Shown piece after piece: positions 1 to 48,997 of a stretch of 64,000 bases of DNA. Origin of the DNA: an uncultured Candidatus Saccharibacteria bacterium. Lineage in GTDB: Bacteria > Patescibacteriota > Minisyncoccia > Phycocordibacterales > SBAW01. Location: contig CAZYUH010000001.1 in NCBI GenBank assembly GCA_964650645.1, positions 564,274 through 628,273 of the forward strand. Direction: 5' to 3'. How positions within the stretch are numbered: the first letter of the stretch is position 1; every line of letters starts with the position of its first letter. The notes under the pieces were generated by a model. That model searched no databases and was not told the DNA's origin. It was given only the letters and a program-made list of their open reading frames with translations. The position numbers and the translations under genes are program-made.

Positions 1-1
1 A

Positions 2-2998
2 ACCGGTGACGTTGTGGTTGATGGAAATTTGATAGTAAACGGCGTCACGTCATCCCCGGTTATTTTAAATGGCACCATTCAAGCGCTTGGAAGCTCTATC
101 ACGAAAATTGACAATGCAACCATAAATGGCGCCTTGTATGGCCTTGGCGCAAGCTTGCAGATAAGCAATGTGACAGTAAACTCGACGCTTGAAGGATGGT
201 ACGCGGTGTATTGGGGCAATGGGGATTTTATCCATGCGTCAACTACCATAAGAGGTAGTAGTCAATACAACGGCTTCGTCGTAGCTCTCTCGTTAATGAT
301 GCAAAATCAGACTTGGACCAATGACAACGACACGCCCTACATCATTGAGGCGGGGGATTTCATACCATCGGGCATTCATCTGACAATCCAACCAGGCGTG
401 ATAGTTAAGGTCGTCCAGGTAGGACCGGGCCCTGGCTCTGTCGAAAATAGAGGTCTGATAAATATCCAAGGGAGCACATCTTCGCCGGTATACGTAACCT
501 CCATAAAGGATGATTCGGTCGGCGGGGATACGAACGGCGACGGCTCGGCGACAGCGCCGCAACGCGGGGATTGGGGCGGATTTGATAACGGCAACGGAAG
601 CATGACATTAAGCAATGCAAAATTTTCTTACGCCAATTGGGCTTTTGATGCGTCGAATTCTTCAGTCTCGACAGGTGGCATTAACGCTTCCTATATTACG
701 ATTTCTTCCTCGACGGTCGGGATTTATAACAATGGCATAACTTTTCTTCGTGACAGCATTAGCCGTTCAACATTCTCCAATGTAGAGATAACGGGCAATG
801 GGGTAGGCATACAATGCAGCGGCAATCCGACGGCTAATTTTACCGTACGCGACAGCGTTATTGCCGGGAACGATAAAGGGACTGGTTCAACCTGCTCCGG
901 TTCAAATGATCTGACTGATTTAAGAAATAATTGGTGGGGAGACGCATCGGGGCCTTATAATGCCACCTTCAATCCCTCGGGCAAGGGCGACAGCGTAGAG
1001 GGCGACCTTTCGCTCTATCATCCGTGGGTAGGCGCGTCGTCTACTACCTGTTCAGTAGATTGCAATTCCAGCGTGATGTTTTTGCCGGGTTTCGAATCCA
1101 GCAGGCTTTATGTTCCTAGTCTTTTAGGAGAGAACAAGATTTGGGAGCCTAATAGTATTGTCAGTCATGATGTGGCTAACTTGGATATGAACAATTCCTC
1201 TGCAGCAAACATCGTTTATACAAAAGAAAAATCGATTATAGACACTGCGTACAATGGTCTTCCGTTTGTAAGCAGTCGCTATGATGTATATGCGTCGCTC
1301 ATTGCTCAGATGAACGCATTGGCAACCGGCACCACACCACTTATAAACGAATGGGAGCCTATTGCCTACGATTGGCGACTTGACTATGACGCATTACTCA
1401 ACGCTGGTAACAAAATTGGCGAAAAAATATACTACCGCGGCACTAATGCGGCCACCAGCACGCCTTACATTATTCAGGAGCTGCAAAGGCTCGCTGCCAG
1501 CTCGCGTACGAAGAAAGTGACCATAGTCGCGCATTCCAACGGCGGTTTGCTGGCTAAAGCGCTCACTAACGCATTAGGTACCACTACGGCCAGCCAGCTC
1601 ATAGACAAAATAGTAATGATAGCCACGCCGCAGTTGGGAACACCTAAGGCAATCGGTGCGTTACTTTCTGGTTACGACCAAGCTCTCCCGCTCCAAGTTT
1701 TCCAAGCATTCTTAACAAATGCAGATGCCCGTGCTCTTGCACTAAGTACTCCCGCTGCCTACAATCTCTTACCATCAAGCGAGTATTTTGATGATATTCA
1801 GAATCCAGTCGTTACCTTTGATCCAGCTACGTTGCCATGGTGGGTTACAAAATATGGTTCATCTATATCCTCCGCCAGCCAGCTACGTAACTTTTTGACC
1901 GACTCGACTCGTCCGAGTCCGCAATATAGCGACATGAAGACACCAGGTGTGGCCAACTTGGCGCTCTTTGATAGTGCGCAGAGTGTCCATAATAGCCTTG
2001 ATAACTGGACACCTCCACCGGGTGTGCAACTCGTTACAATTGCGGGCTGGGGAGTTCCAACCTTGTCGACAATTAACTATAAAAGGAAACCACAGAGCGT
2101 ATTAGGGATTTCCACTGGCTATGCAACAACCACCGAATTTACTATGGCAATAGACGGTGACGGCACAGTGGTAGATGCTAGTGCCCAATGGGCGAATGGC
2201 GCTCCTGATACGCGCTACTGGATTAATTTGTCAGGTTACAACCATGCTTCATCCAAAGATATCAAACATGACAATATATTTAAGGCAAAACCGCTTCAAG
2301 ATTTGCTGGCAGTCATCGTTAGTAATGCCTCGACTTCTACTCTTCCGCAATATATTTCAACTTCACGGCCTATGTATGTAGGCACTGACCCCCGCGTTTA
2401 CTTTACTCTCCATTCGCCCCTGACTCTCGGTTTTATAGACGCCTCGGGCAATTACACCGGCTCGACCGCTACCTCTACGGTATTTAACGCGCCCGGAGTG
2501 GATTATGAGCGCTTCGGAGAAGTGCAGTGGCTTTCCGTGCCCGCCGGCATGGCGGGGCAGGTGGCCATGCGCGGCACAGGCAGCGGCAGCTTCGCGATCG
2601 ATATCGAGAGCGTCAACGGCAATGACGTGCTCGCGACGACTACGTTTGCCGCGATTCCGGTATCGACCTCGACAGTTGCGACCCTCGCGCTTACGGGCAC
2701 CGGTTCGCCCACGGCAAGCAGCACTCTTGTGGTGGACAGCGACGGCGATGGCGCGAGCGACTTCAGCATGCAGGCGCAGCAGGGAAGCGTGGTCCTGCCG
2801 CCTCCGCAGGAGGAGATGTGCAAGCCTGGAATGCCGCCGCGTGCCCGTGGGCATATGCCCAAGCTGCCGGATTTCCTTACCGCCTTCCTTAATGGTAAGA
2901 ATAACGGCGCCCTTCATAATAAAGACCACTTCCCGCCAGGCCGCGAGAAATGCAAGCAGGATAAAATAAAAACTCCGCCAAAAAAGACGAAGCGGTAG
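2..2998 (+). CDS. 5'-truncated large secreted/surface protein: parallel beta-helix repeats (NNWWGDASGP motif) fused to an alpha/beta-hydrolase (lipase/esterase-like, nucleophile elbow VAHSNGG) domain, plus a C-terminal extension encoded in a GC-rich patch
   Basis: The ORF is open from the window edge and in frame with bases 2-13. It has repeated NG/T/S beta-helix turns, and the motif 'LPGFESSRLY...IVAHSNGGLLAKAL' is typical of lipase class 2/LCAT-like hydrolases. The DNA is ~45% GC until ~2480, then ~68%. Confidence 0.6.
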   Translation, partial: TGDVVVDGNLIVNGVTSSPVILNGTIQALGSSITKIDNATINGALYGLGASLQISNVTVNSTLEGWYAVYWGNGDFIHASTTIRGSSQYNGFVVALSLMMQNQTWTNDNDTPYIIEAGDFIPSGIHLTIQPGVIVKVVQVGPGPGSVENRGLINIQGSTSSPVYVTSIKDDSVGGDTNGDGSATAPQRGDWGGFDNGNGSMTLSNAKFSYANWAFDASNSSVSTGGINASYITISSSTVGIYNNGITFLRDSISRSTFSNVEITGNGVGIQCSGNPTANFTVRDSVIAGNDKGTGSTCSGSNDLTDLRNNWWGDASGPYNATFNPSGKGDSVEGDLSLYHPWVGASSTTCSVDCNSSVMFLPGFESSRLYVPSLLGENKIWEPNSIVSHDVANLDMNNSSAANIVYTKEKSIIDTAYNGLPFVSSRYDVYASLIAQMNALATGTTPLINEWEPIAYDWRLDYDALLNAGNKIGEKIYYRGTNAATSTPYIIQELQRLAASSRTKKVTIVAHSNGGLLAKALTNALGTTTASQLIDKIVMIATPQLGTPKAIGALLSGYDQALPLQVFQAFLTNADARALALSTPAAYNLLPSSEYFDDIQNPVVTFDPATLPWWVTKYGSSISSASQLRNFLTDSTRPSPQYSDMKTPGVANLALFDSAQSVHNSLDNWTPPPGVQLVTIAGWGVPTLSTINYKRKPQSVLGISTGYATTTEFTMAIDGDGTVVDASAQWANGAPDTRYWINLSGYNHASSKDIKHDNIFKAKPLQDLLAVIVSNASTSTLPQYISTSRPMYVGTDPRVYFTLHSPLTLGFIDASGNYTGSTATSTVFNAPGVDYERFGEVQWLSVPAGMAGQVAMRGTGSGSFAIDIESVNGNDVLATTTFAAIPVSTSTVATLALTGTGSPTASSTLVVDSDGDGASDFSMQAQQGSVVLPPPQEEMCKPGMPPRARGHMPKLPDFLTAFLNGKNNGALHNKDHFPPGREKCKQDKIKTPPKKTKR

Positions 2999-3148
2999 GT
3001 GGGGCGCCGGCCTCGCCGCGATGGTCCTCCTCATGATAGTCGTCTCCTTCCACGACATTGCCAGGCTGGTGGGGTAGAGCGAGCCATTTCAAGCTTTTTC
3101 TAGCAGCCCGGCCTCTTCTTTGCATGAGCCGCTCCTGTATTTTCCAGT

Positions 3149-3194
3149 GGGGATAACCCTGGCGGTTGATAAACTAAGATGGTAGCCTAACGTC
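3149..3194 (+). promoter_or_regulatory. Conserved leader/promoter element A (GGGGATAACC...GATAAACTAAGATGGTAGCCT) immediately 5' of paralog A
   Basis: A ~45-nt sequence is repeated with ~75% identity in front of three paralogous genes (3149, 3700, 4530). It ends 0-1 nt before the ATG. Confidence 0.45.
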
Positions 3195-3629
3195 ATGAAG
3201 GGTACAGGTATATTTGGCTGGATACAGTTGCCGAAGTGGTTTGTTTTTTGCGCTTCAGCTTTCCTGACTATTGCATGCCTCGCTCTTTTTTTTCCTAGGC
3301 TTTCAGGGATTTGTTCTGAATATCAGCCCAATTGCGTAGTTCCATACTCAACTTTGTCTTTGTATCTTTTTTGGGCTCCAATTTTACTATTCTTTTCCGT
3401 ATTGACTCTTCCGATAAATCGAACAGTATTCAATTCATGGATTAAATTTATGGTGCCATGGACTTTGTTTTCAATTCTAGTAATTTCAGCAACTCCAGGT
3501 AACTTTGGAAATAACTTAGAAATTAATTTGAAAGCAGTAGCCTCTCTTTCCTTAACGGCTATTTCTTTCTTTGCCTCGCTCCTAATTATTATCATCAAGT
3601 CAGTCCAAGTGTATTGGCGCAAGAAGTAA
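3195..3629 (+). CDS. Small integral membrane protein, paralog A (4 predicted TM, N-term MKGTGIFGWIQLPKW, CxxxxxC loop, C-term YWRKK)
   Basis: The 144-aa ORF lies in AT-rich DNA and shares clear motifs with ORFs 3747..4175 and 4580..4894 (WIKF..PW, FWAPxLL, CxxxxxC). Confidence 0.65.
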   Translation: MKGTGIFGWIQLPKWFVFCASAFLTIACLALFFPRLSGICSEYQPNCVVPYSTLSLYLFWAPILLFFSVLTLPINRTVFNSWIKFMVPWTLFSILVISATPGNFGNNLEINLKAVASLSLTAISFFASLLIIIIKSVQVYWRKK

Positions 3630-3699
3630 GGCTTTAGGTAATTATTTTATAGTTGTCCTCAGCGTCTTCTTGTTTTGAGCAGCTCCGGCATCGGCTAGC

Positions 3700-3746
3700 G
3701 GGGATAACCCCGGCGGTCGATATAACTAAGATGGTAGCCTTGGGAC
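3700..3746 (+). promoter_or_regulatory. Conserved leader/promoter element B
   Basis: The sequence ggggataaccccggcggtcgatataactaagatggtagccttgggac aligns with leader A. Confidence 0.45.
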
Positions 3747-4175
3747 ATGAAGAACACAGGCTTTTTTGATACGTGGATCACAAAAAACACCGTCTTAGTG
3801 GTATCGATTCTTTACGCGGGCGCCGTATATTTCTTCGAAATAAAAGACGCTCCTGCAGGATGTCAGGCCGGATGGTGCTTGAAATTCAGCTCGGATCTCT
3901 TGCTTCCGCTTTTCCTTCCCGCGGTCATTATCGCGTTTTTTTCGCTAGTAACTTATTTTCTCCCAAATCAGATATTCAGAGCATGGATAAAATTTGCGCT
4001 TGCGTGGGCCCTTGTCTCAGGGTTGTGGGTTGTCGCGACGCCGCATGATACCGGTTACGCGCTTAGTCTGGATCAAAAGCCGATGCTAGCGCTCTCTCTT
4101 TCCGCCTTATTCTTCGGATTGTCTGCATTGGTAATTCTTATAAAGCTAATAAGGTTCTATTGGCTTAAGAAGTAA
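3747..4175 (+). CDS. Small integral membrane protein, paralog B
   Basis: The 142-aa ORF has N-term MKNTGFFDTWI, a C..C loop (CQAGWC), the WIKFALAW motif and C-term YWLKK, marking it as a paralog of A and C. Confidence 0.65.
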   Translation: MKNTGFFDTWITKNTVLVVSILYAGAVYFFEIKDAPAGCQAGWCLKFSSDLLLPLFLPAVIIAFFSLVTYFLPNQIFRAWIKFALAWALVSGLWVVATPHDTGYALSLDQKPMLALSLSALFFGLSALVILIKLIRFYWLKK

Positions 4176-4178
4176 CGT

Positions 4179-4203
4179 TAGGATAAGCTGGTAGCCAAGT
4201 GAC
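4179..4203 (+). promoter_or_regulatory. Degenerate copy of the paralog leader (GGATAAGCTGGTAGCCAAGTGAC-ATG) with a decayed downstream ORF
   Basis: It matches the 3' half of leaders A/B/C (GGTAGCC..G.GACATGA.G). The ATG at 4204 opens only a very short ORF. Confidence 0.3.
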
Positions 4204-4265
4204 ATGAGGGGCGCAGCTCCTTCTAAATGTGAATTAATAAAATTGCCGATCGTACTTAATTTTTT

Positions 4266-4496
4266 ATGTTGTACTTAGGACCAGGGTGGCAGTTTGATTT
4301 GATATCTTATGCAATAGTTCTTGCCATTATTTTATTTTTTGGAATGCTGATTCATTTTTCGCGCCGACTGATAAAAAGGGCCAATCTTTCTAGAAACGTA
4401 GCTAAAATAATCTACTCAGTAGAAGTATTGCTTGGTATCGGGTTATGTGCGGTTGTATTGTTTCCAATCATACAGTTTAACCTTGGGCGCTTGTAA
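4266..4496 (+). CDS. Hypothetical small membrane protein (2 TM), possibly a divergent or decayed member of the array
   Basis: The 76-aa ORF sits in 42% GC DNA, where random long ORFs are unlikely, and the protein is hydrophobic. It has no recognisable similarity to paralogs A-C. Confidence 0.3.
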   Translation: MLYLGPGWQFDLISYAIVLAIILFFGMLIHFSRRLIKRANLSRNVAKIIYSVEVLLGIGLCAVVLFPIIQFNLGRL

Positions 4497-4529
4497 ATAA
4501 ACTTTAGCGGTAGGTATCCTTGGTAGGTC

Positions 4530-4579
4530 GAGGGATAACCTGTAAAGACGATAGGAGGGTTGAGTGGTAGCCTAGAGTC
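4530..4579 (+). promoter_or_regulatory. Conserved leader/promoter element C
   Basis: The sequence gagggataacctgtaaagacgataggagggttgagtggtagcctagagtc aligns with leaders A and B. Confidence 0.45.
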
Positions 4580-4894
4580 ATGAAGAATACAGGCATATTT
4601 AGCTGGATACGGCTGCCGAAGTGGTCCGTGTTCTGGTTTTCAATGATTGCGACAGTGGCGTTTGTTGCCAGTTCGGTACCGCAATTGTCAGGATTATGTT
4701 CAAGATGGGAGCCAAACTGCCAGCTGCCGCATTTATATTTTGCAGAAGCGATATTTTGGGCGCCTGTTTTGCTACTTATGTCCATCGTTACTTATCCTTT
4801 AAATGAAAAAGTCCATTACGCTTGGGTTAAATTCGCATTACCGTGGGTTGTTCTGTCTACGGTGGTAGTTTTTTTTAAGTCCTCCCAAGCATGA
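4580..4894 (+). CDS. Small membrane protein paralog C, apparently frameshifted or truncated (its C-terminal TM continues in another frame)
   Basis: The N-term MKNTGIFSWIRLPKW, CSRWEPNC, FWAPVLL and WVKFALPWV motifs match paralog A. The ORF stops early at 4894. Frame +1 downstream encodes ...KAVLSFYSSVLLFVISLLIIFVRSVQISRPKN, homologous to the C-terminus of paralog A. Confidence 0.55.
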   Translation: MKNTGIFSWIRLPKWSVFWFSMIATVAFVASSVPQLSGLCSRWEPNCQLPHLYFAEAIFWAPVLLLMSIVTYPLNEKVHYAWVKFALPWVVLSTVVVFFKSSQA

Positions 4895-4904
4895 AATATA
4901 TGCG

Positions 4905-5012
4905 ACTGACTGGAAGGCTGTATTGTCTTTTTATTCGTCCGTTTTATTATTTGTAATCTCGCTTTTAATAATTTTTGTTAGGTCAGTCCAAATTAGTAGG
5001 CCTAAAAACTAA
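4905..5012 (+). pseudogene. Out-of-frame C-terminal remnant of a membrane-protein paralog (belongs to copy C or to a lost copy)
   Basis: Translation of 4905..5009 gives TDWKAVLSFYSSVLLFVISLLIIFVRSVQISRPKN*, which aligns with the A C-terminus LKAVASLSLTAISFFASLLIIIIKSVQVYWRKK*. Confidence 0.45.
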
Positions 5013-5065
5013 TCTCCATGAGAAAGGTCCCGCATGGGGTGCTGCAGCGTCGCCCGCCTGGTCGG

Positions 5066-5230
5066 GTAAAATAAAAAACCCCGCACCGAAGTGGGGGGTG
5101 AGACGCCGGCTTTGCCGTTTCCGGCCCTGCTTCATCGTGAAGCCCTGGGAACGCCACTCGCTCAGTAAGGAGGGGGTGAGTAGCCAAGACTCGCATCAAA
5201 TGTCCCGGTGACCAGCGTCTCGGTATTTAA
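5066..5230 (-). ncRNA. Putative small structured RNA ending in an intrinsic terminator; class unresolved (weak SRP/4.5S-like GNRA hairpin GCCGGAAACGGC)
   Basis: This is a GC-rich non-coding gap between the low-GC island and proS. On the minus strand a hairpin (5079..5098) is followed by a T-run (rev-comp of 5067..5078), with no CDS upstream on that strand. The stem-loop cagggccGGAAacggcaaagccgg resembles SRP helix 8 only loosely. Confidence 0.25.
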
Positions 5231-5286
5231 TATACACCTAATAATACTTTTTGTCAATCGGGGTGGTGCTAGGCTCATTTTGGCCA

Positions 5287-5292
5287 TACAAT
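5287..5292 (+). promoter_or_regulatory. -10 box TACAAT 12 nt upstream of the proS ATG (leaderless or very short 5' UTR)
   Basis: The sequence is cataCAATagctctacttatATG. There is no Shine-Dalgarno. Confidence 0.3.
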
Positions 5293-5304
5293 AGCTCTAC
5301 TTAT

Positions 5305-6561
5305 ATGCGCCAATCCAAGCTCTTCACGAAGACCCGCCGCGAGGCCCCAAAGGACGAAGTTTCGAAGAACGCGCAGCTCCTCATACGCGCCGGGTACGTC
5401 CATAAGGAGATGGCGGGCGTATACGCGTACCTGCCGCTTGGCCTGCGCGTGCTGGAAAAGATCAAGGGCATCGTGCGCGAGGAGATGGACAAGATAGGCG
5501 GGCAGGAAATCATCATGACGAGCCTCCAGCGCAAGGAGCTGTGGGAGAAGACCGGGCGCTGGAGCGACGAGGCCGTGGATGTGTGGTTCAAGTCCTCGCT
5601 TGCGGCGGGCGGCGAGGTCGGCTTCGGCTGGTCGCACGAGGAGCCTATTGCGGACATGATGCGCAATTACGTCGCGAGCTACAAGGACCTGCCCGTGGTG
5701 GTCTACCAGTTCCAGACCAAATTGCGCAACGAGCTGCGCGCGAAGTCCGGCATCATGCGCGGGCGCGAGTTCGTGATGAAGGACGCGTACTCCTTTTCAA
5801 CCGGGGAGGAGGACCATACGAAGTTCTATAACGCGTGCATCGAAGCCTACAAGCGCGTGTTTAAGCGCGCGGGCGTGGGCGGCGACACGTTCGTGACGTT
5901 CGCCTCCGGCGGCGCGTTCACGGAATTCAGCCACGAGTTCCAGACTATCTGCGAGACCGGCGAGGACACTATTTATATAAACCGCGAGAAGAACATCGCC
6001 GTAAACGGGGAAGTGCTCAATGACGAAACCCTTAAGACGCTGGGCGTGGCGCGCGAGGAGCTGACCGAGGTCAAGACCGCCGAGGTCGGCAACATCTTCA
6101 ACTTCGGCGTGCAGAAGTCAGAGGACCTCGGGCTTTCCTATAAGAACGAGAACGGCGAGGACGTTCCGGTATGGATGGGCTCCTACGGCATCGGCATCAC
6201 GCGCCTCATGGGCCTGCTCGCTGAGAAGCTTGCCGACGGCAAGGGTCTCGTGTGGCCCGAGGCGGTGGCGCCCTTCCGCGTGCATCTCGTGTCCCTGCCC
6301 AACGGCAACGCCGACGTCGTGGCCGAGGCGGACGAGCTGTACCGCGAGATGAGCGAGGCGGGCGTCGAGGCGCTGTACGACGACCGCGACGCGCGCGCCG
6401 GCGAGAAGTTCGCCGACTCGGACCTTTTGGGCCTGCCGTTGCGCGTCGTCGTTTCAGAGAAGACCTTGGCTGCGGGCAAGTTCGAGTGCGTCGAGCGCGC
6501 GTCGGGCGCGACGCGCCACAGGAGCTTCTCGGAGCTCATCGAGGAGCTGTCCGCGCGCTAG
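5305..6561 (+). CDS. proS: Prolyl-tRNA synthetase (short bacterial type lacking the INS editing domain)
   Basis: The protein begins MRQSKLFTKTRREAPKDEVSKNAQLLIRAGYV...YAYLPLGLRVL, and class II motifs are present. The upstream in-frame ATG at 5251 was rejected because the N-terminus aligns from 5305. Confidence 0.9.
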   Translation: MRQSKLFTKTRREAPKDEVSKNAQLLIRAGYVHKEMAGVYAYLPLGLRVLEKIKGIVREEMDKIGGQEIIMTSLQRKELWEKTGRWSDEAVDVWFKSSLAAGGEVGFGWSHEEPIADMMRNYVASYKDLPVVVYQFQTKLRNELRAKSGIMRGREFVMKDAYSFSTGEEDHTKFYNACIEAYKRVFKRAGVGGDTFVTFASGGAFTEFSHEFQTICETGEDTIYINREKNIAVNGEVLNDETLKTLGVAREELTEVKTAEVGNIFNFGVQKSEDLGLSYKNENGEDVPVWMGSYGIGITRLMGLLAEKLADGKGLVWPEAVAPFRVHLVSLPNGNADVVAEADELYREMSEAGVEALYDDRDARAGEKFADSDLLGLPLRVVVSEKTLAAGKFECVERASGATRHRSFSELIEELSAR

Positions 6562-7648: not shown

Positions 7649-8387
7649 CCCGTTCGACCGCATGCCGCGCAAGCGGGCGCCCAGGCGCTCGTGGCCGCTC
7701 TTTGTTGTCGCGGCCGTCCTGCTTGTGGGAGCGGTGGCGCTCTTGCGCGAGCCGGCGTCGAGCCTCCTGTGGCGCGTCCTTGCCCCCGCCGCGCGCGTGC
7801 GCGACTCGCTCAGTAATTCCGAGAACGCGCGCCTGCGGGCCGCGCTTGCTTCGACCACTGCCGCGCTCGCCGACCGCGCGCTTTTGTACGAGGAAGTCGC
7901 CGACCTGCGCGCGCGGCTGGGCCGCCCCGACGCGCCGCACGCGCGCGTGCTCGCCGCAGTGCTTGAGCGCCCGCCGTGGACGCCGTACGATACGCTGGTC
8001 ATCGACGCGGGCGCCGACCATGGCCTTGCCGCGGGCTCGCTCGTTTCGGCGGGCGGGCGGGGGCTCGTCGGGCGCGTGTCGGAAGTGTACGACACTGCCG
8101 CGCGCGTCGAGCTCTTTTCCGCGCCGGGCGCCTCCTACCAGGCCCTCCTCAACGGCACCATGCCCGTGGCGGTAGAAGGCCAAGGCGGCGGGTCGCTCCG
8201 CGCCGAGGTGCCGGCCGGCACGCCGGTGAAGGTCGGGGATAGCGTCGCGTTTCCGGGGCTCCTGGGTGGTATAGTGTCTGTTGTATCCGCGACCGAGGCC
8301 AAGGAAGGCGAGTCCTTCATCGTCGTGTACATGCGCCTTCCCGCCAACCCCGCAGACCTGCGCTTCGTGGAGGTTATCCGCCCATGA
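7623..8387 (+). CDS. mreC: Rod shape-determining protein MreC
   Basis: An N-terminal TM and coiled coil are followed by the beta-domain GxRVGRVSEV...VSAGG. It overlaps the mreB stop. Confidence 0.8.
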   Translation: MKTMAISPSPFDRMPRKRAPRRSWPLFVVAAVLLVGAVALLREPASSLLWRVLAPAARVRDSLSNSENARLRAALASTTAALADRALLYEEVADLRARLGRPDAPHARVLAAVLERPPWTPYDTLVIDAGADHGLAAGSLVSAGGRGLVGRVSEVYDTAARVELFSAPGASYQALLNGTMPVAVEGQGGGSLRAEVPAGTPVKVGDSVAFPGLLGGIVSVVSATEAKEGESFIVVYMRLPANPADLRFVEVIRP

Positions 8388-8674
8388 CCCTTTCAAGCGG
8401 CCACATATACGCGCTGACGTTCGCCATCGCCGCGACCGGCTTCCTTGTGCCGTTCTGGCCCCTGTCGGTGGCCGGCATCCTCATCGCGGCGCTTTCGGGG
8501 CGCTATATTTTCGCGCTCATGGTCGCGCTTCTCCTGGACCTCGCCTCCGGGGTCCCGACGGGAGTCCTGCACTATTTGTATGCGCCGTTCACTATCCTCG
8601 CCGCCCTAGCGGGAGCGCTGAGGATCTTCGGCGGCGCGTACGTCTTGGACAAGACCCCGCCCGATACGCTTTAA
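8384..8674 (+). CDS. mreD: Rod shape-determining protein MreD (short form)
   Basis: This is a 96-aa polytopic membrane protein whose start overlaps the mreC stop by 4 nt, and it is followed by PBP2. Confidence 0.55.
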   Translation: MTLSSGHIYALTFAIAATGFLVPFWPLSVAGILIAALSGRYIFALMVALLLDLASGVPTGVLHYLYAPFTILAALAGALRIFGGAYVLDKTPPDTL

Positions 8675-8681
8675 TGGGTCC

Positions 8682-10364
8682 ATGCTTCGCTGGCGGTTCC
8701 GCAAGAGGAGGATGCGCTCGGAAATACATCCCGACGAGATTTTCATAGATTCTGAGAACGTCTCCGAGCTCGACCGCGACCAGTTCGAGGGCCGCATCGA
8801 GCGCCCGCTCTCGCGCCGCCAGCTCGCCATCGCGGGCGGCGTCGTTTGCCTGGCCTTCGTCCTCCTGTTCGCGCGCGCGGGCGTGCTCCAGGTGGTGCAC
8901 GGGCAGGAGTACGCCGAGCAGGCGGAGCGCAACCAGCTTTCCGAGCAGACGATATTCGCCGACCGCGGCGCGATAGTGGATCGCAACGGGGTGCCTTTGG
9001 CGTGGAACGAGCGCGGGAGCGTGGACGATGATTTCGCGAAGCGCGTGTACGCAAACATGCGCGGGCTGGCGCATGCGGTGGGCTACACCCGCGCGCCCGC
9101 GAAGGACTCGAAGGGCTTCTACTTCCGCACCTCGTTCGAGGGGCTCGACGGCGCCGAGCAGGTGTACGACGAGAAGCTGCGCGGCCAGAACGGCGTCGAG
9201 CTCACCGAGACCGACGCGCTCGGCGACGTCGTGTCGCAGGCGACGACGCGCGCGCCGGTGGCGGGGGAGACGCTCAGGCTCTCGCTCGACGCCAATGTCA
9301 CCCAGGGGCTCTACGACGTGCTCGCGAAGAACGCCAGCGCGGCGAACTTCCAGGGCGCGGCGGGCATCATCATGGACGTGCGCACCGGCGAGCTCCTCGC
9401 TTTGGCGAGCTACCCCGAGTACGGGCAGAACGCCATGGTCGAGGGCGACCGCGCGCTCCTCGCGCAGTACAACAGCGACGAGCGCCAGCCGTTCCTCGAC
9501 CGCGCGGTGGACGGGCTCTACGCGCCCGGCTCCATCGTCAAGCCCGTCGTCGCGGCGGGCGCCATAGCCGACGGCGTCATCGATGAGTACAAGCAGATAG
9601 AGTCGACGGGCAAGCTCGTCCTCCCTAACCCGTACGACCCGGACAACCCGAGCATCTTCCGCGACTGGCGCGTCAACGGCTGGGTGGACGCCCGGCGCGC
9701 CATCGCGGTCTCCTCTGACATCTATTTCTACGAAGTGGGAGGCGGCTTCGGCAGCCAGAAGGGCATGGGCATAGAGTCCATAGGCAAGTGGCTCAGGGCC
9801 TTCGGGCTCGGCGCCGACGCGGGGCTTGAGGGCTTCTCGTCCAAGGCTGGCACCATACCGAGCAAGGAGTGGAAGGCGCAGGCGTTCCCCAAGGACCCTA
9901 CGTGGCGCGTGGGCAACACCTACCACACCGCCATAGGCCAGTACGGCACGCAGGTCACGCCCTTGCAGGCCGTCCGCATGACTGCCGCGCTCGCAAACAG
10001 CGGCACCCTGCTGGTGCCGACCCTGCTGGCGAGCTCGACCCCGCAGGCTTCAAAGGTGCAGATAGACCCGCACGCCCTGCAGGTCGGGCGCGAGGGTATG
10101 CGCATGAGCGTCACCGACGGCATCGCAACCGGCGTCAAGCTCCCGTACGTGTCGGTGGCGGCGAAGACCGGCACCGCGCAGATAGGCATGCGCAACGAGT
10201 ACCTCAACGCCTGGATGGTAGGCTTCTGGCCGTACGAGGATCCCAAGTACGCCTTCGCAGTCATACTCGACCGCGCGCCCGAGCACACTTCGACGGGGGG
10301 CAACGCGGTCATGGGCCAGTTCTTCGCCTGGATGCGCGATAACGCCCCGCAGTACCTCAAGTAG
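8682..10364 (+). CDS. mrdA: Penicillin-binding protein 2 (elongation transpeptidase)
   Basis: The SIVKP (SxxK), SSD (SxN-like) and KTGTAQ motifs are present, along with an N-terminal TM and the mre operon context. Confidence 0.9.
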   Translation: MLRWRFRKRRMRSEIHPDEIFIDSENVSELDRDQFEGRIERPLSRRQLAIAGGVVCLAFVLLFARAGVLQVVHGQEYAEQAERNQLSEQTIFADRGAIVDRNGVPLAWNERGSVDDDFAKRVYANMRGLAHAVGYTRAPAKDSKGFYFRTSFEGLDGAEQVYDEKLRGQNGVELTETDALGDVVSQATTRAPVAGETLRLSLDANVTQGLYDVLAKNASAANFQGAAGIIMDVRTGELLALASYPEYGQNAMVEGDRALLAQYNSDERQPFLDRAVDGLYAPGSIVKPVVAAGAIADGVIDEYKQIESTGKLVLPNPYDPDNPSIFRDWRVNGWVDARRAIAVSSDIYFYEVGGGFGSQKGMGIESIGKWLRAFGLGADAGLEGFSSKAGTIPSKEWKAQAFPKDPTWRVGNTYHTAIGQYGTQVTPLQAVRMTAALANSGTLLVPTLLASSTPQASKVQIDPHALQVGREGMRMSVTDGIATGVKLPYVSVAAKTGTAQIGMRNEYLNAWMVGFWPYEDPKYAFAVILDRAPEHTSTGGNAVMGQFFAWMRDNAPQYLK

Positions 10365-10406
10365 GGCGCTCCCGGGCCCGCGCCGCCTTAAGGCGGCGCG
10401 GGCCGC

Positions 10407-10440
10407 GCTTGACTTGCGTCCCGGTTTAGCTACACTTGGT
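10407..10440 (+). promoter_or_regulatory. Sigma70-like promoter TTGACT-N16-TACACT upstream of greA, followed by a ~120-nt structured 5' UTR
   Basis: The sequence is gcgcTTGACTtgcgtcccggtttagcTACACTtgg. The UTR contains the hairpins gtgcTAATgcac and ccccgcgagggg. Confidence 0.35.
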
Positions 10441-10561
10441 GTGCTAATGCACCGTAATTCCCCGCGAGGGGAATTTATGGTCTGGCGAGCGGGGAACGCG
10501 AGCTCGCAGTATCCCGAAGGAAAAGCGGCGCCGTAGTAATTTCATAAATTCATACATTCAC

Positions 10562-11020
10562 ATGGAAGAGATGATGTCCCAGGAGAAGTTCGAGGAGCTG
10601 ACCCAGGAGCTCGAGGGCCTGCGCACGACCCGCCGCAAGGAGGTCGCCGAGCAGCTCGAGTACGCGCGCTCGCTGGGCGACCTTTCCGAGAACGCCGAGT
10701 ACCAGGAGGCGCGCGAGATGCAGTCGGCGGTAGAGGAGCGCATCGGCAAGCTCGAAGGCATCCTCAAGAACGCGAAAATCGTGAAGGCAGGCAAGGGCGA
10801 CGGCGTGGGGATGGGCTCGACCGTGACCGTGCAGAAGACGGGCGGCGGCGAGAGCCATACCTACACCATAGTGGGCGCCGAGGAGGCCGACATCATAAAG
10901 GGCAAGGTCAGCTACCACTCGCCGCTGGGCGCGGCGCTTCTGGGCAAGAAGAAAGGCGATGAGTTCTCCTTCAACACCCCGCGCGGCGTGCAGAAGTACA
11001 AGATACTGAAAGTGGACTAA
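10562..11020 (+). CDS. greA: Transcription elongation factor GreA
   Basis: The protein spans MSQEKFEELTQELEGLR...LSENAEYQEAREMQ...GDEFSFNTPRG. Confidence 0.95.
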   Translation: MEEMMSQEKFEELTQELEGLRTTRRKEVAEQLEYARSLGDLSENAEYQEAREMQSAVEERIGKLEGILKNAKIVKAGKGDGVGMGSTVTVQKTGGGESHTYTIVGAEEADIIKGKVSYHSPLGAALLGKKKGDEFSFNTPRGVQKYKILKVD

Positions 11021-11032
11021 AAGCCAAAAGAA

Positions 11033-11061
11033 GAACCCCCGGCGAAAGCCGGGGGTTTTTG
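11033..11061 (+). terminator. Intrinsic terminator after greA
   Basis: The sequence is cccccggcgaaagccggggg followed by ttttt. Confidence 0.8.
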
Positions 11062-11073
11062 AGCACGAGGCGC

Positions 11074-11322
11074 TCAGAAGCGCGGGTAGTTTTCGGGCAC
11101 TTTCCCGTCGGGAAAGAAGTAGCCCACGTCGACGTTGTTCCTTCTCGCGACGAATTCGAGCTTCTGCCCGCATGCGGGCTTGCCGGCTTCCCAGTCGGAT
11201 ATCTCCTTCTGGTGCGTCCCGCAACGGGCGGCGAAGTCGCTCGGGGACATCGGGCCGCGCAGCTCCTTTAGTCTGCTTCCAACGAACCTGTGGATGGCCT
11301 CGTCGTTGGGTTTACGCGCCAT
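11074..11322 (-). CDS. XRE-family helix-turn-helix transcriptional regulator
   Basis: This is an 82-aa protein with HTH_3-like core LKELRGPMSPSDFAARCGTHQKEISDWEAGK. Confidence 0.7.
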   Translation of the reverse strand: MARKPNDEAIHRFVGSRLKELRGPMSPSDFAARCGTHQKEISDWEAGKPACGQKLEFVARRNNVDVGYFFPDGKVPENYPRF

Positions 11323-11488
11323 AGTCGCTTCCTTCTCGTTGCGCCCCTCAGGGCAGGGTTCTTAATGGGCCGCGACGCGCGTTCGCAGCCCCGTTTCGGC
11401 GTATTCTGTACCAGCTCGCCGTGTAATACACTACTATAATTTTGCAAATAGTCAAGAGTGAATTGTAGTGCCTGTGCCGGCAAAAAGC

Positions 11489-11509
11489 GCTACATGCAAA
11501 ACATGTAGC
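11489..11509. promoter_or_regulatory. Perfect inverted repeat GCTACATG-N5-CATGTAGC (candidate operator) between the divergent XRE regulator and the lysyl-tRNA synthetase gene
   Basis: The 8-bp half-sites at 11489..11496 and 11502..11509 are exact reverse complements. A second 8-N2-8 palindrome, GGGAAAGC-GA-GCTTTCCC, lies at 11512..11529. Confidence 0.4.
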
Positions 11510-11555
11510 CTTGCTCGCATGGGAAAGCGAGCTTTCCCAACTCGCTCCGCTAGAC

Positions 11556-11561
11556 TATAGT
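11556..11561 (+). promoter_or_regulatory. -10 box TATAGT 6 nt upstream of the lysK ATG (leaderless start)
   Basis: The sequence is gactaTAGTtacgctATG, with a weak -35 TTCCCA 16 nt upstream. Confidence 0.35.
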
Positions 11562-11567
11562 TACGCT

Positions 11568-13085
11568 ATGTTTTGGGCAGACCGCATAGCGGGGGAGGTT
11601 GTGACGCGCTTCGGCGCGCGCTCCGAGCCCCTTCTCATACGCGACGAGAAGACGCTCTCCGGCCGCGTGCATGTCGGAAGCCTGCGCGGCGTGGCGATAC
11701 ATGGCGTCATGCATGAGGTGCTGAAAGAGAAGGGAATCGGCAGCGCGTTCATGTTCGAGTTCAACGACTACGACCCCATGGACGGCATCCCGGCGTATCT
11801 CGACCAGGCCGCGTACGAGAAGTACCTAGGCATGCCGCTTAAGAACATCCCGAGCCCGGAGCCCGGCTTCGATAACTTCGCGGAGTACTACGGCGCGGAG
11901 TTCAGGGCCGTCATCGAGGCCGCGGGCTGGGAGCCCGAGGTGTACCGCAGCAGCGAGCTGTACCTTTCGGGCCGCATGGACGGCGCCATCCGCGCGGCGC
12001 TCGAAGGCGCGGCCGATATCCGCCGCATCTACAAGGAAGTCTCGGGCGGCGAGCGAAAGGATGCGTGGCTTCCCGTATCGGTCATCTGCCCGTCGTGCGG
12101 CAGGCTCTCGACCACGTTCGCGAGCGATTTCGACGGCGAGACCGTGCAGGTGTCGTGCCGCGACCTCGAATGGGTGAAGGGCTGCGGCTTCGAGGGGCGC
12201 GTATCGCCGTTCGGCGGCAATGCGAAGCTCCCGTGGAAGGTCGAGTGGCCCGCAAAATGGAAGGTCGTCGGCGTCGACATCGAGGGCGCGGGCAAGGACC
12301 ATTCGACCAGGGGCGGCTCGCGCGACGTCGCCAACCATATTTCAAAAGAGGTGTTCGGATACGAGCCGCCGTTCGACATGCCGTACGAGTTCTTCCTGGT
12401 CGGCGGAAAGAAGATGTCCTCGTCCAAAGGGCGGGGCAGCAGCGCAAAGGAGATTTCGGACCTCGTGCCAGCGAAGATCCTGCGCCTGGCGCTCCTTGGC
12501 AAGGATCCGATGCACGCGTTCAGCTTCGACCCTGAGGGCGATACCATTCCCGTTTTGTACGACCTGTACGACAAGCTCGCCGCGGCCTACTGGGCGGGGA
12601 TGCGCGACGACTTCTCGCGCCTGTTCGAGTACGTCCATCCGCGCCGCGCCATTCCCGCGCAGTCGGCATTGCCGCGCTTCTCGCAGGTCGCGTTCGTCGT
12701 GCAGATGCCGCATATGGACCTGCACAAGGAGTTCCCCGAGGCCGACCGCGCCGAATTGGACGAGCGCGCGAAATACGCCCGCCACTGGCTTTCCGCGTAC
12801 GCGCCCGAGAAGTTCGTATTCAAGCTGCAGGAGGAGCTTCCGGATGCCGCGAAGGGCCTTTCCGATTCTGCCAAAGCGGCACTCAAGGGGCTGCATGGCT
12901 TCATCGCCTCGCGCGAGGCGATGCCCTCTGGCGAGGAACTGCACGCCGAATTGCACAAGACGAAAGAATTTAAGGCGGTGTATCTCGCGTTTTTGGCCAA
13001 AGAGAGCGGCCCCAAGGCTGGGTGGTTCCTCTCGAGCCTGCCGCGCGAGTTCGTGCTCGCACGGCTTGCGGAGGCGAGCGCGTAA
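11568..13085 (+). CDS. lysK: Class I (archaeal-type) lysyl-tRNA synthetase
   Basis: The N-terminus MFWADRIAGE matches the class-I LysRS N-terminus (M.HWAD...). It has the HIGH variant HVGSLRG, KMSKS as KMSSSKG, and a Zn knuckle CPSCGRL...C. The in-frame ATG at 11511 is a possible alternative start. Confidence 0.85.
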   Translation: MFWADRIAGEVVTRFGARSEPLLIRDEKTLSGRVHVGSLRGVAIHGVMHEVLKEKGIGSAFMFEFNDYDPMDGIPAYLDQAAYEKYLGMPLKNIPSPEPGFDNFAEYYGAEFRAVIEAAGWEPEVYRSSELYLSGRMDGAIRAALEGAADIRRIYKEVSGGERKDAWLPVSVICPSCGRLSTTFASDFDGETVQVSCRDLEWVKGCGFEGRVSPFGGNAKLPWKVEWPAKWKVVGVDIEGAGKDHSTRGGSRDVANHISKEVFGYEPPFDMPYEFFLVGGKKMSSSKGRGSSAKEISDLVPAKILRLALLGKDPMHAFSFDPEGDTIPVLYDLYDKLAAAYWAGMRDDFSRLFEYVHPRRAIPAQSALPRFSQVAFVVQMPHMDLHKEFPEADRAELDERAKYARHWLSAYAPEKFVFKLQEELPDAAKGLSDSAKAALKGLHGFIASREAMPSGEELHAELHKTKEFKAVYLAFLAKESGPKAGWFLSSLPREFVLARLAEASA

Positions 13086-21066: not shown

Positions 21067-22158
21067 ATGGACCTGCTTACCGTACTCGTTGCCGTGCTCA
21101 TACTGCTCGCTTTGGGCATCATTGCCATGCTCTGGCGCATGCAGAAGGGGGCTACCGCCGCGCCGCAGGATTCGCAGAGCATGGTGCTTTTGCAGAACCA
21201 GCTCGCGGAGCTGACGCGCGCCATGGACAGCAAGCTTGGCGAGGGCACCAAGGCCATGAGCGAGTTCATGACGGCCCAGACGGACCAGGGCCGCGCGCTC
21301 ATGGCCACCATTACCAAGCAGGTGGGCGACCAGCTCATAGAGGTCGTCAAGGGCGTTTCGGAAACCCGCGAGAGCACCAAGCAGATATTCACGATTGCCG
21401 AGCAATTGGGCAACCTTGAGCAGGTCTTAAAGAACCAGAAGCAGCGCGGCAACCTGGGCGAGGCGAGCCTCGAGCTCGTCATGAGCAACATTTTGCCGCC
21501 CGGCGCCTACCAGATGCAGTACGAATTCCCGGGCGGGGAGACGGTGGACGCCATCATACGCACCAAGGAGGGGATTATCCCCGTCGACGCCAAGTTCCCG
21601 CTCGAGAACTACTCGCGCCTGCGCGACGAGAAGGACGACCTGCGCCGCCAGGAATACGAGGACGCGTTCAAGAAGGACCTCAAGAAGCGCATCGACGAGA
21701 CGAGCAAGTACGTGCGTCCCAAGGACGGCACCCTGCCGTTCGCGTTCATGTACATCCCGGCCGAGGGCATTTATTACGACCTCCTGAACGACGGGGTGGG
21801 GGCGGTCAACACGCGCAGCCTCCTTGAGTACGCCCAGAACGACCGCAAGGTGATTATCGTGAGCCCTACGACGTTCGCCGCGTACCTGCAGTCGGTTTTG
21901 TACGGCTTCAAGGCCTTCAAGATAGAGGAGCAGGCCAAGGATATCGCCAAAAACGTGGAGGCGCTCAGCCGGCACCTGACCGCCTACGAGGATTACTACA
22001 AGCGGCTGGGCGCGTCCCTTTCGACCACGGTCAACCACTACAACGCGGGCTACAAGGAGCTGGGTAAGATCGACAAGGACGTGCTGAAAATCACGGGCGA
22101 CGCGGCCGGCATCGAGGTGGCGGCCATAGAGAAGCCGCTCCTGGAGGGCAAGGAGTAG
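21067..22158 (+). CDS. rmuC: DNA recombination protein RmuC
   Basis: An N-terminal TM is followed by a long coiled coil and the conserved RmuC C-terminal region (...SPTTFAAYLQSV...). Confidence 0.8.
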   Translation: MDLLTVLVAVLILLALGIIAMLWRMQKGATAAPQDSQSMVLLQNQLAELTRAMDSKLGEGTKAMSEFMTAQTDQGRALMATITKQVGDQLIEVVKGVSETRESTKQIFTIAEQLGNLEQVLKNQKQRGNLGEASLELVMSNILPPGAYQMQYEFPGGETVDAIIRTKEGIIPVDAKFPLENYSRLRDEKDDLRRQEYEDAFKKDLKKRIDETSKYVRPKDGTLPFAFMYIPAEGIYYDLLNDGVGAVNTRSLLEYAQNDRKVIIVSPTTFAAYLQSVLYGFKAFKIEEQAKDIAKNVEALSRHLTAYEDYYKRLGASLSTTVNHYNAGYKELGKIDKDVLKITGDAAGIEVAAIEKPLLEGKE

Positions 22159-47620: not shown

Positions 47621-48997
47621 TTATTTTACCCCGCTTTCGATGTACTTTACGAGGAAGCGGACGGGCGCGCCGGCGGCGCCTTTGGCGAGGTGGTCTTCGG
47701 GGGTGGCGGTCATGCGCGGCGCCATGTCTACGTGCACCCACGGGCAGTCAAGCTCCTTGGCGAACACTTCCAAGAACTTGCCGCCCGCTATAACGCCGCC
47801 GTGGCGGGAGTTGCCCATGGCGGAAATGTTCGGCACGTCGGCGAACGTCCCCTTCACCATGGGGTCGTACTCCTCCCACAGCGGCAGGGGCCACATATAG
47901 TCGCCTGACGCCTCAGCGAGCTCCATAAGGGGCTGCACGAGCGCGTCCTTGTTGGTCATGAACGCCGAGGCTACGGTGCCCAAGGCTATGAGCGACGCGC
48001 CGGTGAGCGTCGCGACGTCGATGACCGCGGTCGGATTGTACTTCCTGGCGTAGGTGATGGCGTCGGCGAGTATGACGCGCCCTTCCGCGTCGGTGTTGAG
48101 TATCTCGATGGTCTTCCCCGACATCGACGTGAGCACGTCGCCCGGGCGCATGGCGCCGCCCGCCGGCGCGTTCTCGACCGCGGGCACGAGCGCGACGACG
48201 TTCCTTTTAAGCCCGAGGCGCGCGGCGGCGATGACCGCGTGGATGACCGCCGCGCCGCCCGACATGTCCATGTGCATCTCGTACATGCCGTCGCCCGTCT
48301 TTATATTGAGCCCGCCGGTGTCGAACGTGACGCCCTTCCCCACCAGGACCACGGGCTTCTTTGAGCGGTCGGCGCCCCAGTACTCGACGATGATGAGCGC
48401 CGGCGCTTCCTTGGAGCCTTTGGCGACGCCGAGAATGGCGTTCATGCCGAGCGAGGCCATCTCGGCGACGCCGAGGACCTTCACCCGGGCCGGCGTGCCC
48501 TGCGCCGCGGCGACGGCGGCTTCTGCCAGGAGCTCGGGCGTCATGTCGCCGCCCGGAGTGTTCGAGAGCGCGCGGCACGCGTTGACCGATTCGCCCACGA
48601 CGCGCCCCTTCTCGAACGCGTTCTTGGCGGCGGGCGGCGCATTGCGCACCTCGACCGTGTCCACCGACAGGAACCCGCCCTTGGGCGCGGCCTTGTACGC
48701 CGTGTGCTCGTAGTCGGCCATCACGAACGCCTCGGCGCACAGCTGGGCCAGGTCGGCGTCGTCTATGGCCTTGGGCGCGAGCGCGCGCAATTCCTTGAAG
48801 TCGATGCTCACGGCGCGGGCCTCGTTCGCGCGGGCGAACCGGAGCGCCTTGCGCAGGAATACGATGAGCCGGCGGCGGGTCAGGGGCTTCTTGTCGCCGT
48901 ACCCCGCCAGCATGGACAGGCCGTCAAAGCGGCTCAAAGGGCCCTCGATGAAGCGCAGGGGGCGGAACTCGTTTGTGCCGTCAAAGACGAATTGCAT
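47621..48997 (-). CDS. pepA: Leucyl aminopeptidase (M17)
   Basis: It has the signature NTDAEGRVILADAITYA, plus K/D/E metal ligands. Confidence 0.9.
   Translation of the reverse strand: MQFVFDGTNEFRPLRFIEGPLSRFDGLSMLAGYGDKKPLTRRRLIVFLRKALRFARANEARAVSIDFKELRALAPKAIDDADLAQLCAEAFVMADYEHTAYKAAPKGGFLSVDTVEVRNAPPAAKNAFEKGRVVGESVNACRALSNTPGGDMTPELLAEAAVAAAQGTPARVKVLGVAEMASLGMNAILGVAKGSKEAPALIIVEYWGADRSKKPVVLVGKGVTFDTGGLNIKTGDGMYEMHMDMSGGAAVIHAVIAAARLGLKRNVVALVPAVENAPAGGAMRPGDVLTSMSGKTIEILNTDAEGRVILADAITYARKYNPTAVIDVATLTGASLIALGTVASAFMTNKDALVQPLMELAEASGDYMWPLPLWEEYDPMVKGTFADVPNISAMGNSRHGGVIAGGKFLEVFAKELDCPWVHVDMAPRMTATPEDHLAKGAAGAPVRFLVKYIESGVK

Follow-up and report, generated by a model that had tools for sequence, protein, structure and literature searches.

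A tandem array of four-helix membrane-protein genes beside a secreted LCAT-type enzyme gene, with a probable leaderless promoter ahead of each copy

Actinobacteria and Deinococcus make leaderless mRNAs from promoters with a TANNNT −10 element, as seen by differential RNA sequencing (dRNA-seq) in Mycobacterium. Among toxin-immunity systems, the Tli proteins that accompany the Tle effectors of the type VI secretion system (T6SS) are periplasmic or lipoproteins, and tsaI, which belongs to type VII secretion (the T7SS), encodes a polytopic membrane protein. In the T7SS immunity genes, conserved homology blocks drive the loss and expansion of tandem immunity paralogs (PMC9484751). The mechanism of lipid acquisition in Patescibacteria is unexplained, and lysolipids are enriched in these bacteria (PMC7242380, PMC11665869). 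Here we analyze a window, meaning the whole 64,000-nucleotide stretch of contig CAZYUH010000001.1 (assembly GCA_964650645.1, positions 564,274 to 628,273), in which positions 3149-5012 hold a tandem array of genes for small membrane proteins with four transmembrane (TM) helices, each gene preceded by a conserved leader. The best joint explanation, to which we give a probability of roughly 0.6, is a recombining array of 4-TM genes partnered with a secreted LCAT-type enzyme, where the leader would be a promoter for leaderless mRNA and the proteins would be self-protective or serve as a dock.

The array contains three paralogous genes on the plus strand, at the coordinates given by an earlier sequence-only reading of the same stretch. 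Copy A (3195..3629) is an intact open reading frame (ORF) of 144 aa, for which an AlphaFold2 (AF2) model (predicted local distance difference test score, pLDDT, 90.3) shows four TM helices. Copy B (3747..4175) is also intact, at 142 aa, and is assigned by alignment to a different subfamily with a TPH..ID.KP motif. Copy C (4580..5012) carries a +1 frameshift in the T8 run at 4869-4876 and is either a pseudogene or switched off. Amino acid identity, estimated earlier at ~40%, was measured as 35-36% for A and B, 44-47% for A and C, and 34% for B and C (34-47% overall). The motifs MK(G/N)TG(I/F)F, FWAP.LL, W(I/V)KF..(P/A)W and YW(R/L)KK were recovered; the cysteine loop, previously given as CxxxxxC, has six residues between the cysteines in A and C (C-x6-C) and four in B (C-x4-C).

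The C-terminal helix of copy C was indeed readable out of frame, being open in the +2 frame at 4881-5012, and the family hidden Markov model (HMM) matched 4869-5009 with E=1e-7. Removal of one T from the T8 run restores an ORF of 143 aa. The truncated 104-aa product is also recorded on a Logan-assembled contig and the repaired 143-aa version has no record in the sequence collection, so the frameshift is probably real. Copy A is 100% identical in L002 and L003 (contigs with identical or related proteins are designated here by L numbers, and family members by P numbers). Copy B groups with P0016, P0020, P0022 and P0024 in the family alignment and is under purifying selection, with a dN/dS of 0.21 against the L002 allele.

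Downstream of B, at 4181..4217 on the plus strand, lies a collapsed 5' module in which the GGATAA box is fused to GCTGGTAGCCA, followed by 6 nt, ATG and ~4 codons of the N-terminus. This is the fourth leader remnant with a collapsed ORF that had been noticed from the sequence: GGATAA, GCTGGTAGCCA and ATG all fall within 4181-4206, and the spacer between the boxes has been deleted. It is followed by a plus-strand gene for a 76-aa two-TM protein (4266..4496), which is 59% identical to its paralog, a 76-aa gene preceding copy P0003 upstream of the window. The array lies in a low-GC island, as proposed, with 37-49% GC across ~1-5000 and 60-74% beyond. A, B and C are paralogs of an unnamed 4-TM family in a birth-and-death tandem array, a description that held up between strains, where copy number, pseudogenes and mosaic identity all differ. 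A and B are different subfamilies sharing a grafted 5' module, not recent duplicates.

Homopolymer runs were a recurrent feature of these genes. Two of the three runs of at least 8 nt in the 64 kb fall in 4-TM genes, and runs of 7-9 nt were observed inside most copies of the narrow clade that carries the leader (window 3286-3293 and 4869-4876; L005 1172-1180; L019 6224-6232; L020 397-403). The copy termed X1 (L020/L023) is frameshifted at an A7 run, and its intact homologues in L005 and L019 carry A9. Both frameshifted copies, C and X1 of L020/L023, are broken exactly at such runs, which could reflect mutational decay or on/off switching.

The extent of the family was determined by a full HMMER scan of 1.84 billion cluster representatives with a 5-sequence profile, which gave at least 711 clusters (50% identity) at E<=0.001 and 121 at E<=1e-10. 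Among the 150 representatives listed, nearly all have a length of 120-150 aa; tandem fusions, in which the profile matches twice, make up some of the few longer ones. The profile scan was needed for this wider family; a word-indexed protein search with copy A returned only the query itself and two relatives. No relatives turned up when GTDB genomes and viral contigs were scanned with a protein pattern, and sequence searches of Pfam, NCBIfam, PADLOC, PHROGs and PDB gave no match, in agreement with the earlier remark that the family could not be named. Weak matches to DUF202 (3 of 27 members, best E=0.0014) were dismissed. Residues C40, C47, W82 and S128 are invariant, and K14, W89 and P101 nearly so. 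By the positive-inside rule, with a C-terminus of KSVQVYWRKK, both termini would be cytoplasmic and the cysteine pair would lie in the first outer loop. Between lineages the 4-TM proteins are 25-40% identical.

Ahead of the array, with its 5' end cut by the window edge, is an ORF of 994 aa (14..2998, plus strand) encoding a large secreted LCAT-type alpha/beta-hydrolase. It matches Pfam PF02450 (LCAT) at 55.4-55.8 bits against a cut-off of 21 and contains an AHSNGG nucleophile motif; a Pfam match to Tle3 was below threshold (14 bits against a cut-off of 27). In L001 (1482-4685) the enzyme has its full length of 1067 aa and carries the signal peptide MGKYFRILSILGLFFVGAAPALA. The enzyme core, roughly 610-650 aa, is 54-57% identical to enzymes beside distant family members. 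The final ~55 codons of the window ORF (2830-2998) consist of unrelated, GC-richer sequence and follow a ..QGSVVL motif near which the distant homologues end (..KQGSLIINN, then stop). Loss of the original stop codon, in the rearrangement by which the rseP tail described below arrived, may have lengthened the LCAT ORF.

In L006/L007 and L009/L010 an LCAT-type gene ends 9-12 nt ahead of the 4-TM gene. The P0016 gene sits 9 nt behind the enzyme gene, the P0030 gene is preceded by a 1252-1281-aa ORF ending 8 nt upstream, and in L021 a partial ORF lies 9 nt upstream, with a C-terminus resembling LCAT-type C-termini (E=8e-6). In the narrow clade the order is reversed, with the 4-TM gene followed by the LCAT gene, at a gap of 4 nt in L004. 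In most lineages checked, gene order thus points to the 4-TM protein as a conserved genetic partner of a large secreted LCAT-type lipase/acyltransferase. As far as the searched libraries show, this link between the family and LCAT-type exo-enzymes appears to be new. It ties a widespread and previously unannotated membrane-protein family to a secreted hydrolase and gives both proteins a testable functional context.

We infer that the 4-TM proteins act in the membrane of the producer, with or against the adjacent exo-enzyme. A protective, immunity-like role is favoured, at somewhat below even odds, because divergent copies stand in strings, orphan subfamily types, pseudogenes and 3' fragments of the enzyme gene occur, and exchange between strains has been recent. 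Two traits of the array are of the toxin-immunity type: the 4-TM gene lies 4-12 nt from a co-oriented LCAT gene in L004, L006/L007, L009/L010 and L021, and divergent paralogs, orphans and pseudogenes vary between strains. Of the functions suggested from the sequence alone, the bacteriocin/immunity type gained support from the LCAT hydrolase adjacent in distant lineages; phage exclusion and envelope stress did not, and searches of PADLOC and PHROGs gave no match.

More tentatively, the 4-TM proteins may be working partners of the LCAT enzyme, as a membrane dock or as an acceptor or uptake component for released lipids or lysolipids. Such a role would suit the highly conserved enzyme core and the location of the pair among housekeeping genes on a 754-kb contig, and the close coupling (8-12 nt) suggests production in fixed proportion. 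The unexplained lipid source of Patescibacteria and their enrichment in lysolipids (PMC7242380, PMC11665869) are also in its favour. It would be unexpected, however, for a subunit accompanied by one enzyme gene to exist as three to five divergent copies, with pseudogenes among them, that are present in some strains and absent from others, and L023 holds only a 3' LCAT remnant within the array stretch covered. If the hosts are Patescibacteria, as the 754-kb contig and the gene content would suggest, the pair would be a candidate for lipid acquisition or self-protection. A speculative and rather improbable extension is that the LCAT exo-enzyme and its 4-TM partner form a lipid-harvesting apparatus of ultrasmall host-dependent bacteria (Patescibacteria, or candidate phyla radiation, CPR). 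In that case the enzyme would strip acyl chains or lysolipids from the membrane of a neighbour, the 4-TM proteins would shield the enzyme or dock it on the scavenged membrane of the producer itself, and the individually promoted copies, perhaps switched at homopolymers, would be exchanged between strains to match different enzyme variants or hosts.

The leaders of the three copies have a common layout on the plus strand. The module of copy A (3149..3194) consists of a GGGGATAACC box at 3149-3158, a putative extended −10 element TGGTAGCCT at 3180-3188, a 6-nt discriminator and the ATG. The module of copy B (3700..3746) has GGGGATAACC at 3700-3709 and TGGTAGCCT at 3732-3740, and that of copy C (4531..4579) has AGGGATAACC at 4531-4540 and TGGTAGCCT at 4565-4573. 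The ATG thus follows 6 nt after TGGTAGCCT each time, the element starting at 3180, 3732 and 4565. An 18-nt box, GGGGATAACCCYGGCGGT, occurs twice against 0.21 occurrences expected by chance. The leader box is locus-specific, three of its six matches with at most one mismatch in the 64 kb lying at the array.

Nine distinct leaders were compared, namely window A, B and C, P0003 in L005, those of L004 and L019, and X1, X2 and X3 of L023. GGATAA and TGGTAGCCT are kept in all nine, and TG-G-TAGCCT is invariant throughout. The gap from TAGCCT to ATG is 6 nt in eight leaders and 8 nt in L004, and its bases are variable and do not resemble a Shine-Dalgarno (SD) sequence. GGATAA and TGGTAGCC are separated by 23-26 nt (mode 24), and in 7/9 leaders the first GATA is followed exactly 16 nt on by a second; the spacer is otherwise unalignable between species. 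The GGGGATAAC box is positioned at about −47 to −39. This conservation at orthologous loci of related genomes bears out the proposal that the leader is a functional cis element.

The leader had also been described as more conserved than the coding sequence (CDS). Between copies, identity is indeed 64-88% in the leader and 43-67% in the CDS past codon 15; the conserved block, however, runs ~45 nt into the coding region, where the first 45 nt are 82-91% identical, copy B excepted. It forms a portable 5' module of ~95 nt, found on every copy of the narrow clade. The N-terminal MKGTGIFGWIRLPKW extension (first 15 codons) is present only in this clade, together with the leader.

The leader is most likely a private promoter, one for each copy, with an mRNA that begins at the ATG. 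TGGTAGCCT reads as an extended −10 element (TGn + TAnnnT), and with a 6-nt discriminator transcription is predicted to start at the A of the ATG, which would give a leaderless mRNA; the same gap leaves no room for an SD sequence. In this genome, 23 of 65 putative gene starts (35%) are preceded by TAnnnT at a distance of 5-12 nt, compared with 35 of 1095 internal ATGs (3%), at a modal gap of 6. SD-like motifs were not enriched, occurring at 9/65 gene starts against 11% inside genes. Clear cases of the same layout are TAGAAT-N6-ATG at 21067, TGaTACAAT-N6-ATG at 27197 and TGcTAGACT-N7-ATG at 42906. Since TAnnnT is enriched at gene starts and SD motifs are not, leaderless mRNA would be the local norm, and leaderless or near-leaderless mRNAs seem to be the usual form in this organism, with its small, high-GC genome. 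Such a lineage-specific example of a promoter (TGnTAnnnT 6 nt from the ATG, no SD sequence) would be useful for calling gene starts in genomes of this kind. Further starts with TAnnnT were noted at 31941, 34740 and 37647; in first genes TGn is frequent and the gap is 6-12 nt.

The hexamer of the array, TAGCCT, is atypical in comparison with other gene starts, which mostly have TAGAAT, TACAAT, TAGACT or TATACT. Upstream of it, the GGGGATAAC box and the second GATA probably form a candidate regulator site. Each copy would have an extended −10 promoter of its own that yields a leaderless mRNA, and the candidate regulator would bind the GGGGATAAC/GATA boxes; CCCCATAAC is an altered form of the GGGGATAAC box for a promoter mutant design. 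Several likenesses of the GGGGATAAC box were dropped, because of misfits in spacing or flanking bases and because the central part of the leader lacks conservation between species: an 8/9 match to the DnaA box, the conserved 23S rRNA motif GGGGAUAAC, a tRNA 5' half and a −35/−10 pair of extracytoplasmic function (ECF) sigma type. JGI metagenomes and GTDB genomes were scanned with the leader pattern GGGATAACC-N17-28-TGGTAGCC-N5-10-ATGAA. The five matches were taken as chance, none having a family ORF downstream, and on this basis the leader appears confined to the narrow clade in NCBI, Logan and ENA assemblies.

A non-regulatory origin of the conservation is unlikely, although part of the pattern agrees with it. 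The 5' block would then be the youngest part of recent duplicates, kept alike by gene conversion. The likeness of the A and B leaders (42 of 50 nt identical) extends to the variable spacer at a protein identity of 35%, junctions fall right after the 5' module in the remnant at 4181-4217 and in the fusion to the rseP tail in L020/L023, and described immunity arrays retain such homology blocks (PMC9484751). Between genomes, however, the boxes are invariant amid spacers that cannot be aligned (window A, L004, L005 and X1 of L023), which conversion within a genome cannot produce. The 6-nt gap is constant in these genomes as well, except for L004 (8 nt), and the geometry is that of the general promoter layout of this genome.

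Still less probable is translational control of each copy by a transcribed cis-regulatory RNA, such as a riboswitch, an attenuator or a protein-binding leader. In its favour are the strong conservation of the block and an 8-bp helix that RNAalifold can draw, in which UGGUAGCC pairs with codons 11-13 (GGCUGCCG) and the start region would be hidden; read-through from upstream genes is also possible, no terminator having been seen between A and B. The RNAalifold covariation term is nevertheless positive (+0.45), the main helix of the aligned leaders has no compensatory pair, and copy B breaks it; covariation, which the sequence-only reading had proposed to look for, was thus not found. Seven single-sequence folds were mutually inconsistent, with z-scores of −2.1 to +1.0, mostly near 0, and the spacer varies in sequence and length with no conserved pairing. 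No leader matched Rfam 15 at gathering score, at which only two tRNAs were found across the window, and at E<=5 the region 2900-5400 gave only chance-level matches, none in the leaders. The fixed 6-nt distance to the ATG is as predicted for a −10 element, and if this −10 assignment is correct the leader is not even transcribed. Of the three roles first offered for the leader, the promoter for leaderless transcription is therefore strongly favoured, a regulator site is plausible for the GGGGATAAC box, and the RNA switch is left with no fold, covariation or Rfam match.

The map was extended leftward by contigs with identical or related proteins (L001, L005), which carry one more intact copy upstream of the window. 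From rseP this part runs through a 76-aa gene, a leader, the intact copy P0003 (142 aa) and a decayed 4-TM remnant (family HMM, E=1.7e-4) to the large ORF, whose 3' part corresponds to window 14-2998. On the 3' side of the large ORF follow a remnant of the rseP tail, A, B, the collapsed module, the second 76-aa gene, C and proS. The remnant, at 3005..3077 on the plus strand, is 84% identical to the genuine 3' end of rseP (site-2 protease) in L001 and L005, and marks the left edge of a duplicated unit. In L020 and L023 the rseP tail is fused to a 4-TM N-terminus or 5' module. As the rseP tail marks the duplication junctions, the duplicated unit would be the rseP tail, the intergenic region, the leader and the 4-TM gene. 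LCAT 3' remnants are found ahead of copies in L006, L023 and the window.

The composition of the array differs between strains, and the proposed look for the same cassette in relatives turned up further copies in L001, L005, L023 and others. The block 4176-5031 of the window, with the remnant, the 76-aa gene and C, is missing from strains L002, L023, L024, L026 and L027, and in L002, L024, L026 and L027 copy B runs directly into the proS side. In L023, the proS/mreB flanks of which are 85% identical to the window, five copies stand in a row (X1, frameshifted, X2, X3, A and B), together with a 5' module fused to the rseP tail, and within the array stretch covered the large ORF is represented only by a 3' fragment between X3 and A. 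Comparison of the window with L002/L003 revealed a mismatch-free block of 750 nt (3064-3813) that includes leader A, A, leader B and the start of B, with flanks of 75-90% identity between strains and only 79% on the proS side. An identical block in diverged flanks suggests that the segment 3064-3813 was recently transferred or swept between strains.

The breakpoints of collapsed copies (window 4181-4217; L020/L023) fall right after the 5' module. Relatives of B (P0016, P0020, P0022 and P0024) have no N-terminal MKGTGIFGWIRLPKW extension, yet copy B has MKNTG and a leader like that of A, so the simplest reading is that the 5' module was grafted onto B by recombination. The common 5' module would provide a homology block for unequal recombination between copies, which would account for the duplications, deletions, collapsed remnants and the grafting onto B, a gene of a heterologous subfamily. 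A shared block of promoter and N-terminus could in this way serve as the recombination handle of a gene array, and the recombination of the array would fit the logic of the T7SS immunity arrays.

Related cassettes were seen elsewhere. In L006, at 8001-11695, a cassette of three genes (4-TM, 118 aa and 77 aa) is exactly duplicated in tandem, with a period of 1612 nt and a copy of the enzyme 3' end ahead of each duplicated cassette copy; a divergent second copy of the C-terminal coding end of the enzyme stands in front of the 77-aa gene. No similarity was detectable between the 77-aa protein of this cassette and the 76-aa protein of the window, and the 118-, 145-, 157- and 168-aa neighbours at distant loci are not members of the 4-TM family.

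That the copies are mobile cassettes, integron-like or phage-borne, with the conserved block as a recombination site, is highly improbable: the cassette-like layout, the low-GC island and the 750-nt block identical between diverged strains would agree with it, but no integrase or recombinase was found in the locus or in related array loci, nor an attC-like inverted repeat, junctions fall at differing, non-homologous points (rseP tail, LCAT 3' end), PHROGs and PADLOC gave no match, viral contigs held no relatives, and the array is flanked by rseP and proS in several relatives.

Several points weigh against the joint explanation of a recombining array with leaderless promoters and LCAT-partnered, protective or docking proteins. 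Library searches of the family found no homology to a known immunity or defence family. With its core at 54-57% identity and the 4-TM proteins at 25-40%, the enzyme seems closer to a conserved exo-enzyme than to a polymorphic toxin. The best-conserved motif of the 4-TM proteins (..F..W.KF...W) is placed at the cytoplasmic end of TM3 and away from the outer loops, and two of the seven lineages checked (L011 and L022, both short contigs) have no adjacent LCAT gene. For the leader, the leaderless assignment draws on geometry and the genome-wide pattern, and both the inner GCC of the hexamer and the upstream box are fully invariant, which is more than a generic −10 element needs. Nor was a gene for a cognate regulator found nearby. 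Since the likeness of A and B includes the variable spacer, some of the conservation seen within one genome would be due to recent conversion and not to selection. On balance the cis element is best explained as one of an ordinary kind, a promoter for leaderless mRNA, with an unexplained operator-like box specific to the locus.

Other features were noted in the window. Between copy C and proS, on the minus strand at 5075-5257, a near-perfect sigma-70 promoter (TTGACA-17-TATATT, 5257-5229) is followed ~145 nt on by an intrinsic terminator (5092-5078), and a small RNA of ~145 nt is predicted. This element has no Rfam family match; conservation in L002 covers its 3' 80 nt, where a GAAA-tetraloop hairpin and the terminator stem show compensatory changes. 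An 89-nt tRNA-Gly(GCC) at 48493-48581 was called by ARAGORN, not by the Rfam tRNA model at gathering score; either the call is false, or the tRNA may be an unusual or interrupted one. The window also encodes a TPR-repeat protein with a caspase domain (Peptidase_C14; 59441-60964, minus strand) and a class I lysyl-tRNA synthetase (11511-13085, plus strand), both somewhat unusual for bacteria and of possible use in placing the organism.

Of the described systems, the T7SS immunity strings of Firmicutes (esaG, tipC, tsaI; PMC9484751) resemble the array in having non-identical, co-oriented paralogs beside the gene of a secreted protein active on the membrane or envelope, sequence blocks common to all copies, recombination leading to loss and expansion, and a copy number that varies between strains. 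They differ in that there is no sequence or fold relation and no T7SS at the array, in that the common block of the array is promoter plus N-terminus, and in that the enzyme of the array is conserved, not polymorphic; toxicity and protection in the array are putative. T6SS Tle/Tli pairs and the orphan arrays of contact-dependent inhibition (CDI) and Rhs systems likewise have a gene for a lipase-type alpha/beta-hydrolase directly followed by one for a small protective protein, and downstream arrays with 3' fragments of the big gene; unlike these, the array shows no secretion-system genes, and Tli proteins are not 4-TM proteins. The enzyme is like the Pfam PF02450 LCAT family in its score above the gathering threshold and its GxSxG-type nucleophile motif, and unlike it in its size of ~1000 aa, its signal peptide and a lineage-specific N-terminal region with a faint Beta_helix_4 match. 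The leader, finally, shares with the TANNNT leaderless promoters of Actinobacteria and Deinococcus a TAnnnT element 6-7 nt before the start codon, the lack of an SD sequence and genome-wide use. It belongs to a different organism, with a high-GC genome and a 754-kb contig, and the array promoter is set apart by its invariant, unusual hexamer TAGCCT, its extended −10 TG and its locus-specific upstream box.

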